A stretch of DNA of 64,000 bases from Thermovirgaceae bacterium. GTDB taxonomy: Bacteria; Synergistota; Synergistia; Synergistales; Thermovirgaceae. The notes under the pieces are model-generated. The model saw only the letters and a list, made by a program, of their open reading frames with translations, had not been told where the DNA came from and ran no database searches. The stretch covers positions 32,001-96,000 of the forward strand of contig JAXGNU010000006.1 of NCBI GenBank assembly GCA_040767805.1. The letters are read 5' to 3'. Both the position numbers and the translations under genes were made by a program. Positions 2,252 to 41,693 of the stretch are shown here, piece after piece. Numbering within the stretch: position 1 is the first letter of the stretch; each line of letters starts with the position of its first letter.

Positions 2252-2253
2252 CA

Positions 2254-2454
2254 TCGTGGATCGTGGATCATGAATCGTAATTCGTGAATCGTGAACCGAA
2301 AAAAATACCGATCCTTAAAAGAACGGGACCAAATTACTTCCCTAAGCCGCCAAATGGCGGCTTAGGGTTTCTTTTTGACCAATAAACACTGAAACAAAAA
2401 CCACTTTCTGTTCTCGCTCCGGGCTTTTTCCGATCCACGGTTTACGATTCACGC
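2254..2454. repeat. Convergent heptamer arrays (locus A) around an AT-rich core
   Basis: Six TCGTGAA-like units at 2254-2295; four reverse-complement units (tttccga tccacgg tttacga ttcacgc) at 2427-2454. Confidence 0.85.
2340..2376 (+). terminator. Intrinsic terminator after citF
   Basis: CCCTAAGCCGCC-aaat-GGCGGCTTAGGG followed by tttcttttt, between convergent citF and ugd. Confidence 0.8.
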
Positions 2455-2461
2455 TTTTGTT

Positions 2462-3790
2462 TTAAATCCTCCCCACCCCGTAGTAGGAGAACCCCTGGGC
2501 CCTCACGCGCTCCGGCGAGAGTTGGTTCCGGCCGTCGAAGACCGCCGAGTCGGGCTTCATGGCGCCCTTGACCCTGTCCCAATCGGGCCTGCGGAACTGG
2601 GGCCACTCCGTGACCAGGACGAGGGCGTCGGCCCCCTCGAGGGCCTCGTAGGAGTCGGCGCAGAAGGTCACCGAGCCGTCGTCGGGGAGCAGGGCCCTGG
2701 CCTTTTCCATGGCCACCGGGTCGTAGGCCCTCAACAGGGCGCCCCGCGAGAGAAGGGCCTCGGCCAGGGCGAGGGAGGGCGCCTCCCTCATGTCATCGGT
2801 ATGGGGTTTGAAACTGAGCCCCCAGATGGCGAAGGTCCTCCCGCCCAGGTCCTCCCCGAAGTGGCCCGTTATTTTTTCAAGGAAGAACCGCCCCTGGGCC
2901 CTGTTGGCCTCCTCGACGGCCCTTAGGATGGCCAGGTCGACCCCCCTGGCCGAGGCGCTCCGGATGAGGGCCCGGACGTCCTTGGGGAAACAGGAGCCCC
3001 CGTAGCCAAGGCCGGCGTAGAGGAAGGAGGAGCCGATCCTGCTGTCGGTGCCCATGCCGATGCGGACCTCTCCCACGTCGGCGCCGACCTTTTCGCAGAG
3101 GCGGGAGAGCTCGTTCATGAAGCTGATCCTCGTGGCGAGCATCGCGTTGGAGGCGTACTTGGTCATCTCCGCCGAGGGAATGGACATGGTGTAGAAACGG
3201 TCCTCCCTCATGACGAAGGGGGCGAAGAGCTCCCTGAGCTGCCTGTCGGTATCCTCCCGTTCGGTCCCTATTATGATCCTGTCGGGGCGGAGGCAGTCCT
3301 CCACGGCGGCGCCCTCCTTGAGGAACTCGGGGCAGAAGGCCACGTCGAAGTCGAGGTCCCACCGCCCCCGGTCGGCCAGGTTTTCCCCGATGATCCTCTT
3401 GATCTCGGCGGTGGTCCCCACGGGTATGGTGGACTTGGCGACGACGATCTTGGGGGTCTCCATGAGCCCGCCAATGCGGGAGGCAACCTCGTAGACGTGA
3501 GCCAGGTCGGCGGAGCCGTCCTCCCCGGGTGGCGTACCCACGGCGATGAAGACGAAGAGGCTGGGCCGGAGGGCCTCCCCCAGGTCCGTCGTGAAACGGA
3601 GGCGCCCCTCGGAGAGGTTCCTTTTGACCATGTCCTCGAGGCCGGGCTCGTAGATGGAGACCTTTCCCTCCTTCAGGCCCTCGATCTTGGAGTGGTCGAC
3701 GTCGACGCACCAGACGTCGTTGCCGTTCTCGGCGAGGCAGGCCCCCGTGACGAGGCCGACGTACCCGGTTCCGATGATGCAGACTTTCAT
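2462..3790 (-). CDS. ugd: UDP-glucose 6-dehydrogenase
   Basis: GTGYVG Rossmann motif, VGTP, KSTIPVGT, PEFLKEG, GYGGSCFPKD, GLSFKP, DGRN. Confidence 0.95.
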   Translation of the reverse strand: MKVCIIGTGYVGLVTGACLAENGNDVWCVDVDHSKIEGLKEGKVSIYEPGLEDMVKRNLSEGRLRFTTDLGEALRPSLFVFIAVGTPPGEDGSADLAHVYEVASRIGGLMETPKIVVAKSTIPVGTTAEIKRIIGENLADRGRWDLDFDVAFCPEFLKEGAAVEDCLRPDRIIIGTEREDTDRQLRELFAPFVMREDRFYTMSIPSAEMTKYASNAMLATRISFMNELSRLCEKVGADVGEVRIGMGTDSRIGSSFLYAGLGYGGSCFPKDVRALIRSASARGVDLAILRAVEEANRAQGRFFLEKITGHFGEDLGGRTFAIWGLSFKPHTDDMREAPSLALAEALLSRGALLRAYDPVAMEKARALLPDDGSVTFCADSYEALEGADALVLVTEWPQFRRPDWDRVKGAMKPDSAVFDGRNQLSPERVRAQGFSYYGVGRI

Positions 3791-3845
3791 GGATATCCCT
3801 CCAGGGGCAAATGATGGGGTCGAAAAAAGCGTAAGGGACTGTAAG

Positions 3846-4082
3846 GACCGTAAATCGTAAATCGTGAATCGTGAATCGAAGGGGCGAGGCCAAACCTTTA
3901 GAGCGTGAAACGTAAATCGAAAACAAGGCGACAGGAGTCAGGCGTCAGAAAAACGGAAAAGCAAAAGCGTAAGAGACCGTAAATCGTGAATCGGGAATCG
4001 TAAGAGCAAAGGCGTAAGAGACCGTAAATCGTAAATCGTGAATCGTGAATCGAAGGGGCGAGGCCAAACCTTTAGAGCGTGA
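3846..4082. repeat. Heptamer arrays (locus B) with an exact 63-bp direct repeat
   Basis: 3846-3908 is identical to 4020-4082; a third heptamer run lies near 3977-4004. Confidence 0.9.
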
Positions 4083-4145
4083 GGCGGGAGACGGAAGACC
4101 AAAAGCAAGGCGGCGGGCCAAAAGCGACCCTCTCCGGGCCGTTCC

Positions 4146-4511
4146 CTACCTGCTTATGACCAGCACGCCCGAGAGGATCAGGAAGACCCCGACCAGCCTC
4201 AGGAGGGTGACCTGCTCGGCGAAGAAAAAGGACGACACCCCCAGGACTAGGATGAAGACCAGCCCCGACATGACCGGGTAGGCGACCGACAGGTCCACCC
4301 TCGTCAGGGCTGCGCTCATGAACATGAAGGAGACGCCGAAACAGACCACCCCCGTCACGGCCCAGGGGTTGCCGGCTATACGGAACACGGCCGCGGCGAA
4401 GCCCCTCTCGAGCAGGTCCTGCTGGTGGCCGAAGCCGATCTTCATCATGCTGCTGGCCGTGGCGTTGAAAAGGGCGGAGCCCAGGATCATGAGCATGCCG
4501 AGCCGGTCCAT
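4146..4511 (-). CDS. SMR/EamA small membrane protein, probable undecaprenyl-P-L-Ara4N flippase subunit (ArnE/ArnF-like)
   Basis: About 121 aa, four hydrophobic helices, LSVAYP motif; GGAGGTG RBS before ATG 4511; divergent from arnT. Confidence 0.75.
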   Translation of the reverse strand: MDRLGMLMILGSALFNATASSMMKIGFGHQQDLLERGFAAAVFRIAGNPWAVTGVVCFGVSFMFMSAALTRVDLSVAYPVMSGLVFILVLGVSSFFFAEQVTLLRLVGVFLILSGVLVISR

Positions 4512-8395: not shown

Positions 8396-9251
8396 AAGAC
8401 CGAGGACCGTCGTCTTCGCTTACAGCGAGGTGGGGCACCGTTGCCTCAAGGCGCTGATGGGCCTGGGAGCCGATATAAGGGGCGTCTTCACCTACGAGGA
8501 CGACAGGAACGAGAACACCTGGTTCAGCTCCGTGAAGGACCTGGCCGTGGCGGGCGGCATCCCCGTATTTACCCCCCGCGGCCTCGGCGATGGGCGCGCG
8601 GCGGCCCTCGTGGAGAGCCTGGAGCCGGAGGTGCTTTTCTCCTTCTACTACCGCGACCTCATCCCGGCAGCCATCCTCGCCATGCCCCGCCTGGGGGCCT
8701 TCAACATGCACGGTTCCCTGCTTCCCAGGTACCGGGGGAGGGCCTGCGTGAACTGGGCCATAATCCACGGGGAGACCGAGACGGGGGCCACCCTTCACTG
8801 GATGACGCCCCGCCCCGACGAGGGGGACATCGTCGACCAGGAGAGGGTACCCATCGGTGAGAAGGACACCGCCCTGGATGTGATGCTGAAGGTGGCCGAT
8901 GCCGCCGAGAAGGTGCTCACCCGGAGCCTCCCCCTCATCGAGGCCGGGAAGGCCCCCAGGATACCCCAGGACGGATCGAAGGCCACCTACTTCGGCGGGA
9001 GGAGGCCCGAGGACGGGCTCATCGACTGGGGCGCGCCGGCGAGGGATATCTGCAACCTGGTGAGGGCCGTCACCCGCCCCTACCCAGGCGCCTTCACCTT
9101 CCTGGACGGGCGGAAGGTATTCATCTGGAAGGCGACTCCCCTTGACGAAGATACCGGGGCCGCCCCCGGCACGGTGGTGGGGCGGGAGCCGCTGGTCATC
9201 GCCGCCGACAAGGGTGCCGTAAGAGTGGAGGAATGGGAACAAAAGCCGTAA
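8382..9251 (+). CDS. Stand-alone UDP-L-Ara4N formyltransferase (ArnA N-terminal domain)
   Basis: VFAY, FSFYYR, NMHGSLLPRYRGRA, GETETGATLH, YFGGRRPEDG, RAVTRPYPGAF. Confidence 0.85.
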   Translation: MRKSERPRTVVFAYSEVGHRCLKALMGLGADIRGVFTYEDDRNENTWFSSVKDLAVAGGIPVFTPRGLGDGRAAALVESLEPEVLFSFYYRDLIPAAILAMPRLGAFNMHGSLLPRYRGRACVNWAIIHGETETGATLHWMTPRPDEGDIVDQERVPIGEKDTALDVMLKVADAAEKVLTRSLPLIEAGKAPRIPQDGSKATYFGGRRPEDGLIDWGAPARDICNLVRAVTRPYPGAFTFLDGRKVFIWKATPLDEDTGAAPGTVVGREPLVIAADKGAVRVEEWEQKP

Positions 9252-9470
9252 ATCATGAATCGTAAATCGGGAATCGTAAGGTCAAAAGCGTAAACGGCAA
9301 TAGCAAACTTCAAAACCAGGGCAAAGGTGAAAGGTATGAGTTCTTCTTTTTCGTCTTTTCTAACACCTCACGCTCTTAAGGTTTTGCCTTGCCCTTTCGA
9401 CTCATGACTCACGATTCACGATTCACGGTTCACGGTTCACGATTTACGATTTACGATTCACGATTCACGA
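9246..9470. repeat. Convergent heptamer arrays (locus C) between the two ArnA-domain genes
   Basis: Five forward units at 9246-9280 (the first contains the TAA stop); 10-11 reverse units (ttcacga/tttacga/ttcacgg) at 9394-9470, ending just before the RBS. Confidence 0.9.
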
Positions 9471-38044: not shown

Positions 38045-39436
38045 ATGAAGTACGATGTGATCATAGTGGGGGCCGGGCCTTCGGGGCTCTTCGCCGCCCG
38101 GGAACTGGCGGCGGCGGGCAAAAAGGTGGCGATCCTGGACAAGGGGAAGGGCATAGAGGACAGGCATTGCCCCCTGAAGGAGGGAAAAAGCGACACCTGC
38201 GTCCACTGCAAGCCCTGCAACGTCACCTCCGGTTGGGGCGGGGCCGGTTCCTTCAGCGACGGTAAGCTGACCCTCACCCCCGAGTTCGGCGGCAACCTGG
38301 AGCAGTACGTCGGCCGGGGGGAGCTGGTGGAACTCATAAACGTCGTGGACGGCATCTTCGTGAAGCACGGCGCCAGCCGGAAGGTTTTCTCCCCCGACCC
38401 GGTCTTCGCGAGGGACCTGACCACGAGGGCCAACACCGTGGGCCTCAGGATCATCCCCGCCCGGATAAGGCACATGGGGACGGACCGGTCCAAGGAGATC
38501 CTCCAAAGCATGTACCTGGAGATATCGCCCACCTGCGACATCATGATGGAGACCCCGGCCGATTCCGTCGTGGTCAGGGACGGCAGGGCCGCGGGGGTGA
38601 GGCTCGCCGACGGGAGCGTGCTGGAGGCGGGGGCGGTGCTCCTTGCGCCGGGCCGCGAGGGTTCCCCCTGGATGGAAAGGACCGTCGCCTCCCTGGGGCT
38701 GGAGATTAAGTCCCTGCCGGTGGATATCGGGGTCAGGGTGGAGATCCCCGCGGGGATAGCCGAGGCCGTCACGGACCAGTTCTACGAGGTCAAGGCGATC
38801 CTGGACACTCCCACCTTCGACGACCAGGTCAGGACCTTCTGCATGTGCCCCTACGGCGAGGTCACCACGGAGTACATGGAGCAGCACGATATCCTGACCG
38901 TGAACGGCCACAGCAACCGCGGCGGCGACGGGCGCACGGGCAACACCAACTTCGCCATCCTGGTGAGCACCGATTTCACCGAACCCTTCAAGGACCCCAA
39001 CGGGTACGGCAGCCACATTGCCAGGCTGGCCAACATGCTGGGGGGCGGTGTCCTGGTCCAGCGCCTGGGCGACCTCAAGCAGGGGCGGCGGTCCACACCC
39101 GGCCGGATAGCCAGGGGCCTGGTGGAGCCCACGCTGAAGACCGCCGAGCCCGGCGACCTGTCCTTCGTCCTGCCCTACAGGCACCTCAAGGGGATACTGG
39201 AGATGATCCAGGCCCTGGACATGATCATGCCGGGTATCAACGGCAAGCACACCCTTCTCTACGGCGTGGAGGTGAAGTTCTACAGCCTGAAGCTCGCCTT
39301 GGGCAGCGACCTGATGACCAGCGTGCCGGGGCTCTTCGCCTCCGGCGACGGCGCCGGCGTGACCAGGGGGGTCATCCAGGCCTCGGCCAGCGGCATCGTG
39401 GCCGCGAGAGGAATATTAAAGGACCTTGGAACATGA
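38045..39436 (+). CDS. NAD(P)/FAD-dependent oxidoreductase
   Basis: IVGAGPSG, C..C.PC, GWGGAGSFSDGK, RTFCMCP, GDGAGVTRG. Confidence 0.85.
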   Translation: MKYDVIIVGAGPSGLFAARELAAAGKKVAILDKGKGIEDRHCPLKEGKSDTCVHCKPCNVTSGWGGAGSFSDGKLTLTPEFGGNLEQYVGRGELVELINVVDGIFVKHGASRKVFSPDPVFARDLTTRANTVGLRIIPARIRHMGTDRSKEILQSMYLEISPTCDIMMETPADSVVVRDGRAAGVRLADGSVLEAGAVLLAPGREGSPWMERTVASLGLEIKSLPVDIGVRVEIPAGIAEAVTDQFYEVKAILDTPTFDDQVRTFCMCPYGEVTTEYMEQHDILTVNGHSNRGGDGRTGNTNFAILVSTDFTEPFKDPNGYGSHIARLANMLGGGVLVQRLGDLKQGRRSTPGRIARGLVEPTLKTAEPGDLSFVLPYRHLKGILEMIQALDMIMPGINGKHTLLYGVEVKFYSLKLALGSDLMTSVPGLFASGDGAGVTRGVIQASASGIVAARGILKDLGT

Positions 39437-39618
39437 ATCGGGAATCGCAAATCGGAAAACCTCCCGCGAGTTCATCGCGGGGTAAACGATAGAACACGGC
39501 AAAGGATGGAACCTAAGCCCCAAGCATGCATCGAAGATGAAGTTCTTCAGATCGTCTTGGAAACAATCCTTAATTTCTTGTTTCAAGCCTGGTGTTTTGG
39601 GAACCACGATTCACGACT
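39431..39618. repeat. Convergent heptamer arrays (locus D); right arm interrupted by IS110 and continuing at 40925-40945
   Basis: Forward acatgaa tcgggaa tcgcaaa tcggaaa (39431-39458); reverse accacga ttcacga ct|IS|tacga ttcacga tttacgc. Confidence 0.8.
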
Positions 39619-39634
39619 CGTATATTCTTTCGTC

Positions 39635-39830
39635 GGTTCTAAAATGAACCCTGTAAGGCAGTAGGTTTCGGGACGGCGAAGACCGATTTACGACTGAGGC
39701 CCTAGAGCCTGTTCGTAAGATAGGTCTAGTCGTTCCCACCGAGAACGGACGGTATGCTTGGGGCCCGGTAAGCCCGCATTTACGAGGCCGTTCCCTGGGA
39801 ACAATGCCGTCCCGACAAACCAACTGTAGC
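39635..39830 (+). ncRNA. Predicted IS110 bridge RNA (ends approximate)
   Basis: Two internal loops with segments matching target (39687-39695, 39713-39719) and donor (39749-39755, 39781-39786), each closed by stems. Confidence 0.8.
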
Positions 39831-39854
39831 ATTTCCTACGGGGGTGTTGAAGCT

Positions 39855-40871
39855 ATGAACCAATGTTTTGTCGGGATCGACGTCAGCAAGAAGCAGATCC
39901 ATGTCTGTGTCCTTGGCGAAAAGCCCCATCCCTACCCGAACTGCCTCACCGGGTTCCGGAAGATGATGAAAAGCCTCAGGGAGAAGAAACCCCATGGCGA
40001 AGAGACCTTCTTCCTCATAGGGATGGAGGCCACCGGTGTCTACCACCTCAAGCTCGCCACCTTCCTGAAGGACGAGCCCGATGTGGCCGTTTACGTCCTG
40101 AACCCCGCCCAGGTGAAGAGCTTCTTCAAGGCCTCCTTCCACAGGACCAAGACGGACGCCATAGACGCCTGCGGCATAGCTTCGTGCACGGAGTTCCTGG
40201 TCAAAAGGGACAAGGTCCGTGCCTTCGAGACCCCCGACAACGAGGTCGAACGGCTCAGGCAGCTCTGCCGCCGCCGGGAGGAGATCCTCTCCATGGTCCA
40301 GATGGAGAAAAACAGGATCGAAGCCTTGAAGGAGGTACCATCCCACTCCGGGGAAGTGGAAAGCTCCCTCCTGGAGCACCTGGAGTACCTGGAGCAGCGC
40401 CTTAAGGATATCGAAGAGAAGATCAAAGGACACATACGGAACTCACCGGGACTCAAAGAGCAGGTGGACCTCCTCAAGTCGATACCGGGCATTTCCGATA
40501 CCGCTGCCGCCGGACTCATCAGCGAGATTCGCTGCGCCGAGCGGTTCGACAATGTCAAGGAGCTGGTCGCCTTCGCGGGATTAGCGCCGGCGGAAAGGAC
40601 CTCCGGTACCTCCGTGAAGGGCAGGACCTGCATCTGCAAAACTGGTTCGTCCAGGCTGAGGAAGCACCTCTACATGCCCGCCCTGGTCGGCATAAGATAC
40701 AACCCCCTGCTGAAAGAGTTCTACGAAAGACTGACGAACCGCAACAAGCCCAAGAAAGCCGCTCTCATAGCCTGCATGCGCAAACTGCTTCACATAATCT
40801 ACGGGGTCCTGAAGAACAGAACCGCCTTTGACCCCCTTTGGGCGAAGAACAGGTTCGCCATGGCCTGTTGA
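39855..40871 (+). CDS. IS110 DEDD recombinase/transposase
   Basis: VGIDVSK (D), GMEATG (E), KTDAIDA (DD), SIPGI, AFAGLAP..RTSG, A.IACMRKLL..IYGVLK; intact 338 aa. Confidence 0.96.
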   Translation: MNQCFVGIDVSKKQIHVCVLGEKPHPYPNCLTGFRKMMKSLREKKPHGEETFFLIGMEATGVYHLKLATFLKDEPDVAVYVLNPAQVKSFFKASFHRTKTDAIDACGIASCTEFLVKRDKVRAFETPDNEVERLRQLCRRREEILSMVQMEKNRIEALKEVPSHSGEVESSLLEHLEYLEQRLKDIEEKIKGHIRNSPGLKEQVDLLKSIPGISDTAAAGLISEIRCAERFDNVKELVAFAGLAPAERTSGTSVKGRTCICKTGSSRLRKHLYMPALVGIRYNPLLKEFYERLTNRNKPKKAALIACMRKLLHIIYGVLKNRTAFDPLWAKNRFAMAC

Positions 40872-40961
40872 AACAGATCGGCTTATGAGGGTTCATTATT
40901 TTCAAGGTTGACGGAAGACGGTATCTTACGATTCACGATTTACGCACAGGGAGGTCAGATC

Positions 40962-41693
40962 ATGAAAACCATTGGACTGATAGGCGGGCTGACCTGGGAA
41001 TCCACCATCGAGTACTACCGCATCATCAACGAGGAGGTCGCCCGGAGGCTCGGCGGCGTTCACTCCGCCAGGATCCTGATGCACAGCTTCGACTTCCAGG
41101 ACATCGACACCCTCATGCTGGCGGGTCGCTGGGAGGAGGTCGGGGCCAAGGCGGCCGAAGCCGGCCTTGGACTTGAAAGCCTCGGCGCCGACTTCCTGCT
41201 GATCTGCTCCAACACTATCCACAAGGTGGCCGAGGTCGTCTCGGAGACGGTATCGGTCCCCCTGATCCACCTGGCCGACGTGACGGCCGAGGCCGTCAAG
41301 GAAAAGGGCGTTTGCAAGGTGGGCCTCCTGGGGACAATCTTCACCATGGAACACGACTTCTACAAGGGGCGGCTGGCCCAAAAGCACGGCCTGGAGGTCC
41401 TGATCCCGGAAAAGGAGGACAGGGCCTTCGTGAGCAGGGTCATCGACGAGGAGCTCACCCTGGGCGAACTGAAGGAGGCTTCGAGGGCCCGCTTCCTGGG
41501 GATCATCGATGACCTGGCCCGCCGGGGCGCCGGGGGGGTCATCCTGGGCTGCACCGAGATCCCCCTGCTGGTGAAGCAACCTGACACGGCCGTCACCCTT
41601 TTCGACACGACGCGCCTGCACTCCCTGGCGGCCGTCGAGGAGGCCCTCAAGGAGGACTGCCAGGTGCCTGACGACGGCGAGGAGAATCCTTGA
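40962..41693 (+). CDS. Aspartate/glutamate racemase family (RacX/YgeA-like)
   Basis: GLIGGLTWEST..YY, CSNT, ILGCTE. Confidence 0.9.
   Translation: MKTIGLIGGLTWESTIEYYRIINEEVARRLGGVHSARILMHSFDFQDIDTLMLAGRWEEVGAKAAEAGLGLESLGADFLLICSNTIHKVAEVVSETVSVPLIHLADVTAEAVKEKGVCKVGLLGTIFTMEHDFYKGRLAQKHGLEVLIPEKEDRAFVSRVIDEELTLGELKEASRARFLGIIDDLARRGAGGVILGCTEIPLLVKQPDTAVTLFDTTRLHSLAAVEEALKEDCQVPDDGEENP

Follow-up and report, generated by a model that had tools for sequence, protein, structure and literature searches.

What directs an insertion sequence (IS) into one particular junction of a short tandem repeat, and is the address written in the element itself? The question is raised by a 64,000-nt stretch of a Thermovirgaceae bacterium genome (GCA_040767805.1, contig JAXGNU010000006.1, positions 32,001 to 96,000; 'the window', whose numbering is used throughout), where a first-pass annotation had proposed an IS110 element led by a bridge RNA to heptamer arrays of its host. 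Window 39619-40926 very probably represents an intact, recently active IS110-group IS that moves by bridge-RNA-guided recombination in the manner of IS621. This reading is drawn from sequence, and is carried by the computed element limits, empty site, repeated use of one 14-mer, loop architecture, complementarity of the loops to DNA, and covariation of guides with flanks.

The element is 1308 bp long, with a CT core at each side (39617-39618 and 40925-40926), and the window reads ...accacga ttcacga CT, cgtatatt ... gacggtat CT, tacga ttcacga tttacgc. Deletion of the element in silico restores an uninterrupted heptamer array, as the first-pass annotation had claimed from the window sequence, and the same-genus genome G004 carries the empty site as predicted (ttgggaaccacgaTTCACGACTTACGAttcacgatttacgcacagggagg): nothing is inserted between flanks that are 92-95% identical to those of the window, with just CT separating them. 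An empty allele was also found in a contig of run X17, which joins 39616 to 40925 and skips 1308 bases. Both the greater length of the left non-coding end (236 nt, versus 53 nt at the right), as expected of the IS110 group, and the single CT of the G004 site without any other duplication, as expected of scarless insertion at a short core without inverted repeats, fit the assignment. The left target is the final 7 nt of the left flank, and the right flank is followed by the ribosome-binding site (RBS) and ATG of the next gene (ATG at 40963, 37 bp past the element). The window stretch is present in 20 runs from 14 studies of digester or sludge samples.

The assembly (1.65 Mb in 29 contigs, 80.6% complete) harbours two full copies, 100% identical over 1339 aligned bases, plus one 5'-cut remnant that is 98% identical. 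TTCACGA-CT-TACGA is the 14-mer target of both full copies, which are the sole matches in the assembly to PF01548 and to an RNA covariance model (R1, below). The second copy (L002 1514-2821, contig C4) lies antisense in a 23S-5S ribosomal RNA (rRNA) spacer, between a 23S gene (2867-4339) and a 5S gene (1219-1334) that are both on the minus strand of L002, and this spacer itself consists of inverted heptamer arrays. Other copies and the empty site had been named in advance as tests of the proposal, and both came out in its favour. As for the remnant (L003 about 1500-1850, contig C2, minus strand), it keeps only the last 346 bases of the element; its right flank is CT-TACGG, and its left junction lies directly after a TTCACGA unit, fused to internal ggacctcc with no CT core. 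Contigs of run X9 carry the identical remnant junction.

The recombinase matches PF01548 (E 2.1e-25, 89.7 bits; cut-off 29), PF02371 (E 1.4e-24, 86.7 bits; cut-off 21.3) and NCBIfam NF033542, 'IS110 family RNA-guided transposase' (228.5 bits; cut-off 140). Among solved structures, the ISCro4 transposase (PDB 9t56) is the best match (E 1.5e-42, residues 5-327), and IS621 (8wt6) aligns over the same residues with E 2.5e-41 by phmmer. D9, E58, D101, D104 and S250 align with D11, E60, D102, D105 and S241 of IS621 (8wt6 alignment, chain numbering +2), which form the composite active site in the available part of its structural description (PMC11208158). These matches uphold the proposal of an intact IS110-group element, whose gene has an unbroken frame and lacks none of the five catalytic residues. 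Within this gene, window 40370-40396 is an in-frame 9-nt tandem repeat (CCTGGAGCA, three copies), and a variant of the element in X17 has nine additional bases behind 40377, in this repeat region. Just ahead of the gene, the minimum-energy fold pairs its G-rich RBS with an upstream CAUUUCC in a 9-bp hairpin (39826-39850), which could limit translation of the recombinase.

A bridge RNA in the left end, with one loop matching the target and another the circle junction, had also been proposed, and all four of its guides are found where they were placed (coordinates and match counts in Table 1). The single mismatch of the left target guide is an rU facing a bottom-strand dG, that is, a U:G wobble. 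With its middle UU bulged out, the right donor guide can pair along the whole of CTCGTAT (by eye), a bulge suggested by analogy with U159/U160 of IS621. The target-loop AU at 39720-39721 is complementary to donor positions 6-7 (AT), where both bases can pair (by eye). To gauge chance, the left end (236 nt) was shuffled 20,000 times with its dinucleotides preserved. Single matches were found in 343 (left target), 459 (right target), 359 (left donor) and 1751 (right donor) shuffles, yet any three guides together in only two, and all four in the right order in none.

The predicted fold of the left end is more stable than those of its shuffles (z = -4.47), and a consensus fold was derived from five left ends in two clades: that of the window element and those of relatives L090 (86% protein identity) and L085, L086 and L087 (49-44%). 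It consists of one stem around two stem-loops, each with a large internal loop that surrounds a small hairpin. A total of 37 pairs in seven helices were kept, with 89.7% of 185 cells paired (versus 27.6-53.0% with slid partners), and seven of the 37 pairs change on both sides among the five sequences. Three such pairs are found in helices 1-2, the stem enclosing both loops, whereas in helices 3-4, those of the target-binding loop, 92-100% of cells are paired. The guides sit in the internal loops of the two stem-loops; in the first of these, the 5' strand divides into 2 + 9 + 1 nt and the 3' strand into 2 + 7 + 2 + 1 nt, which comes close to the arrangement of IS621 in the available part of PMC11208158.

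Covariation of guides with flanks among homologues, likewise named beforehand as a test, was scored in seven elements (the window element, L090, L114, L180, L086, L087 and L085), representing four to five kinds of target. For the right guide, the own-pair sum of 45/49 was reached by 6 of 5040 flank permutations; six is also the number of orderings (3!) of the three elements with like right-guide cores. For the left guide (six elements, L085 being without a left flank), the own-pair sum of 42/48 was reached by 2 of 720 permutations. Guides thus covary with their own flanks across orthologues, as had been predicted. For L180 and L114, moreover, the target was predicted from the loops in cmsearch alignments before the flanks were read: L180 (43% identity) matched at 7/7 (right guide) and 7/8 (left guide, the odd position again being a U facing C), and L114 (37% identity) at 9/9 (left) and 6/7 (right). 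The donor side shows the same correspondence by eye, UACGAG going with CT-CGTAT in the window element and AUGAG with CT-CATAT in L086 and L087. These two test cases come from searches with R1, which was built from five sequences: at E up to 0.01, in 98 sources, it recovered the close subclade plus three partial or weak matches only, and at E up to 0.1, in 68 further sources, it gave 12 matches, among which L180 and L114 were the two taken up. Relatives at E up to 1e-70 occur in 6 of 261 genomes of the same order (that of the window, G000, included), and in a scan of representative genomes none of the 80 loci kept exceeds 39% identity. Locus L181 is without a left end.

Close variants at other sites speak for recent movement. 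A 98-99% identical variant occupies another array in contigs of X15 and X17, with left (14 nt) and right (18 nt) flanks the same as at the window site. The variant has 13 and more differences in the element, yet its left end differs only at 39690 and 39717; both changes are A>G, one each in the left and the right target guide, and both form G:T wobbles with the flanks seen. The contigs come from RNA libraries of different studies, and the flanking arrays are rich in CTCACGA. Among the relatives, L090 sits at tttccgt-CT-cacgt, and L091 (97% identical, right part only) at CT-tacac in a non-heptamer repeat.

The host arrays are a genuine repeat family. YTHACGR units form 26 clusters of at least three in the genome and none in a shuffled genome; 15 of the 26 lie mostly outside all open reading frames of at least 120 amino acids, a space that makes up 6.2% of the genome, and TRF reports 25 period-7 arrays of the two main units. 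Heptamer arrays are found as well in the same-genus genomes G002 and G004, both without the window element. All three copies of the element are flanked by arrays, so these might be taken for debris or footprints of the element family, but 26 clusters against three copies, the arrays of the two element-free genomes, the clean array of the empty site and the scarless insertion and excision of IS110 elements (PMC11208160) leave that idea with next to no probability. The claim that the element is programmed against the arrays holds in part. The target does lie inside them, but CT occupies the core place in only 8 of the 202 ACGR-NN-HACGR junctions of the genome (TT in 88), so the element reads a rare variant junction and not arrays in general. 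No free exact 14-mer site remains in the assembly; one free TTTACGA-CT-TACGA, which the left guide matches perfectly, is found some 150 bp away from the second copy, and 12 sites differ from the target by the TT core only (TTCACGA-TT-TACGA). The arrays had also been called safe harbours, which is doubtful because one copy sits in a 23S-5S rRNA spacer, in antisense, and the other is followed by a start codon at a distance of 37 bp. The TTCACGA/TTTACGA family is intergenic, for example at window 2253-2295, 3849-4052 and 9247-9470, and genome-wide; the arrays often come in inverted pairs, and several stop just ahead of an RBS. They may be this genus's counterpart of repetitive extragenic palindromic (REP) elements.

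From these features we infer transcription, RNA-protein binding and catalysis, with the following course of events. The element would excise as a circle, in which right end, CT core and left end come together and so put a candidate -35 hexamer, TTGACG (40908-40913, by eye), 15 nt upstream of TATATT. Transcription from this junction would yield an RNA of about 185 nt (roughly 39633-39816) with a 5' stem-loop and two internal-loop stem-loops, the first holding the host site TTCACGA-CT-TACGA and the second the element's own junction, ACGGTAT-CT-CGTAT. The 338-amino-acid DEDD/Ser recombinase would then exchange strands at the CT core, leaving the element between two CT with no other duplication. 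In the integrated state, the flank TTGGGA, 18 nt and TATATT (39597-39626) form a weak promoter-like site (9/12), the one site found by a promoter scan of the region, against a shuffle mean of 0.6.

Several observations weigh against this reading. A direct-repeat target makes its two guides, left and right, mutually complementary, so that the two target matches are not fully independent and are partly one observation. On the left-donor side the core would be unpaired because GC, not CU, comes after the guide, which matches at only 7/9 once the core is counted; the donor-loop GC at the handshake place gives just one of two pairs with target positions 6-7 (GA), G facing A7 (by eye). The covariation set is small, with three of its seven elements sharing one kind of target, and the left guide of L090 matches its own flank at 7/9 but the window target at 8/9. 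No Rfam 15 family matches 39300-41200 at E up to 1. The second copy has no exact empty counterpart in G004, where the homologous 23S-5S spacer has different array units. Contigs from RNA libraries span the whole element, but with possible DNA carry-over and no starts or ends shown they are not proof of transcription, and element parts without cover in them carry no information.

Some further points would suit an element with proper bridge-RNA IS ancestry that can no longer move in its present host, its copies being relics and its RNA silent when integrated. The 15-nt spacer of the candidate sigma-70 promoter across the junction is short (L086 has TTGACT, 17 nt and TATATT, by eye), no circle-junction joint is listed in the contigs of four runs (contigs only), the copies are few, and the assembly, 80.6% complete, retains no free exact target. 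Such immobility is nevertheless improbable, given the complete identity of the two full copies, the intact frame and catalytic residues, the near-identical variant in a different array in other samples, and the yet other sites of L090 and L091.

The remaining difficulty lies in the target loop. The minimum-energy fold zips the left and right target guides together over 7 bp, 6.5 kcal/mol better than the open loop, and given this self-pairing the free RNA may not present its target guides. The same pairing, at 6.1-8.5 kcal/mol in all five members of the close subclade, invites the view that the target strings are RNA helix arms or a captured piece of array, the site being picked by the protein or by the structure of array DNA, in which the inverted pairs could potentially form hairpins. 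In L114 and L180, however, self-pairing amounts to only 2.2-2.8 kcal/mol, yet 6-9 of 7-9 loop positions agree with the flanks. Conserved pairing of one target guide with the other found no support: the two registers gave 65.7% and 62.9% of cells paired, no better than the slides (the test was set one column off the window element's own register, which is the +1 slide row). The register of self-pairing differs between the two groups and none is kept, so the pairing is read as a by-product of repeat-like targets, a regulatory role being less likely. As the strings, moreover, occupy the places taken by guides in the loops of the solved IS621 complex, in the available part of its description, this alternative is slightly less probable even than immobility, and bridge-RNA guidance stays the preferred reading.

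Table 1. Features of the IS110-group element and its flanks, in window coordinates (RNA features are predicted)
Feature	Position	Strand	Basis or remark
Left flank, two host heptamer units (accacga ttcacga)	39603..39616	+	Identical in G004 empty site
Left CT core	39617..39618	+	Single CT in G004 empty site
Left non-coding end, 236 nt	39619..39854	+	Opens with right donor CGTAT
TATATT, candidate -10 hexamer of circle-junction promoter	39621..39626	+	By eye
5' stem-loop of predicted bridge RNA, GGUUC-UAAAAU-GAACC	39635..39650	+	Minimum-energy and centroid folds
Enclosing stem around both loops, 5' arm	39669..39677	+	Helices 1-2; pairs with 39806-39814
Target-binding loop, made of an outer stem and two 12-nt strands (5' and 3') around an inner hairpin (39697-39710)	39680..39727	+	
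Left target guide, UUUACGACU (DNA TTTACGACT)	39687..39695	+	8/9 against TTCACGACT
Right target guide, UCGUAAG	39713..39719	+	7/7 against reverse complement of CTTACGA
AU at handshake-guide place	39720..39721	+	By eye; position relative to IS621 A81/U82
Donor-binding loop, made of a two-part outer stem and two strands (5' and 3') around an inner hairpin (39759-39776)	39732..39802	+	Helices 5-7
Left donor guide, ACGGUAU	39749..39755	+	7/7 against right-end tip 40918-40924
Right donor guide, AUUUACGAG	39778..39786	+	8/9 ungapped; TACGAG (39781-39786) gives 6/6
Enclosing stem, 3' arm	39806..39814	+	Consensus fold
Recombinase gene, 338 amino acids	39855..40871	+	Residues D9, E58, D101, D104, S250
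Right non-coding end, 53 nt	40872..40924	+	Left donor ACGGTAT at 40918-40924
Right CT core	40925..40926	+	Single CT in G004 empty site
Right flank (tacga ttcacga tttacgc)	40927..40945	+	First 5 nt = right target

The closest described system is IS621 of E. coli, with its 177-nt bridge RNA, and the comparison below relies on the available parts of PMC11208160 and PMC11208158. In both elements the cores are CT, the left end is long and the right end short, the recombinase is alignable over residues 5-327 with the same five catalytic residues, and the RNA has a 5' stem-loop, a target loop and a donor loop; in each loop of both, the 5' strand has the top-strand sense and the 3' strand is complementary to the top strand. 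Shared details are a 2-nt bulge in the right donor guide (by eye in the window element), an AU at the handshake place that faces donor A6 and T7 (by eye), a non-canonical pairing of the left target guide with the natural target, and the use of a family of intergenic host repeats as target. The donor of IS621, which the first-pass annotation had described as close to that of the window element, can be checked at positions 6-14 only, where the two differ at one base. In contrast, the proteins are only distantly similar, and neither Rfam nor R1 links the two RNAs directly; a 9-bp stem encloses both loops in the window element; its right target guide pairs over 7 nt, where the solved IS621 complex shows 4; its left donor guide leaves the core unpaired; and its target is a tandem 7-nt repeat with mutually complementary target guides, whereas that of IS621 is a REP palindrome.

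Other members of the family stand further off. The likeness to ISCro4 is the protein match given above, the comparison covering the protein chain alone. ISPpu9 and ISPpu10 of Pseudomonas putida (PMC12288879, bioRxiv 10.64898/2026.03.19.712850) are IS110 elements in many copies of a conserved intergenic repeat, but their targets, in the available parts of those descriptions, are REP-type palindromes or a single conserved intergenic sequence and not tandem heptamers. The IS1111 group (PMC11208160) has the same recombinase family and RNA guidance, yet carries its guide RNA in a long right end and has long subterminal inverted repeats, whereas the window element has its RNA in the left end and a short right end. 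Among the papers listed by a literature search, none concerns an IS110 element in heptamer arrays, as judged by titles and the openings of abstracts, and the element or a close relative may be among the predicted orthologues in the supplementary tables of PMC11208160. That paper predicts bridge RNAs for 85.7% of catalogued IS110 elements and reports both the REP targeting by IS621 and a junction promoter.

The element is thus an additional member of the bridge-RNA family described in 2024, with no new kind of system. The 7-nt right target guide had been put forward as a distinguishing trait. It is present and pairs at 7/7, but stands at the top of the published natural range and not beyond it (guides of 8-9 nt and 4-7 nt; PMC11208160). 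The U:G wobble of the left guide is likewise real, but the natural IS621 target already departs from the loop-encoded one by a non-canonical G:T pair, and lengthening the right target guide to 7 is already known to improve IS621 (both in the available parts of PMC11208160 and PMC11208158), so neither trait is new in kind. What the locus does add is evidence that the IS621 bridge-RNA rules hold in a distant lineage from anaerobic digesters (proteins matching at phmmer E about 1e-41), in an unusually clean case: the empty site is exact, two identical copies share one 14-mer, and the loops of relatives allowed their flanks to be predicted. Its further contributions are a natural element whose right target guide has the full 7-nt length that improved engineered IS621 (available part of PMC11208158) and a natural pair of guide variants. 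A modest novelty, of possible relevance to guide design, is the tandem-heptamer target with the self-complementary target loop that results from it; as a tool for genome engineering, the element joins thousands of candidates already predicted, with no sign of superiority.

A more speculative idea, which we consider doubtful, is that the guide loop is built for a polymorphic repeat family, with U/G wobble at the variable positions of the units and self-zipping of the guides as a lock. U or G is found at the C/T-variable places of the heptamer units, namely at left-guide position 3 of the window element and at the right-guide base facing target position 10 in the A>G variant. If the idea were true, one RNA could accept several heptamer unit variants by wobble, and the self-zipped guides (6-8.5 kcal/mol in five of five subclade members) would form a lock opened only by the protein or by the right DNA. 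Together, wobble reading and self-lock would then be design rules not described for IS621.

The host sites of the relatives show further variety. L091 660-700 adjoins no heptamers but a tandem repeat with a unit of about 20 nt (acacctttgagaatccca), and its right flank matches the right guide of the window element at 5/7. L086 and L087 (44-46% identity, in sister genomes) sit in a different host repeat, tctgYgtc-CT-cYgYggtgaaaaagg. A further near-copy is present downstream in L087, and L086 has a duplicated piece of its left end upstream of the element, next to NN.

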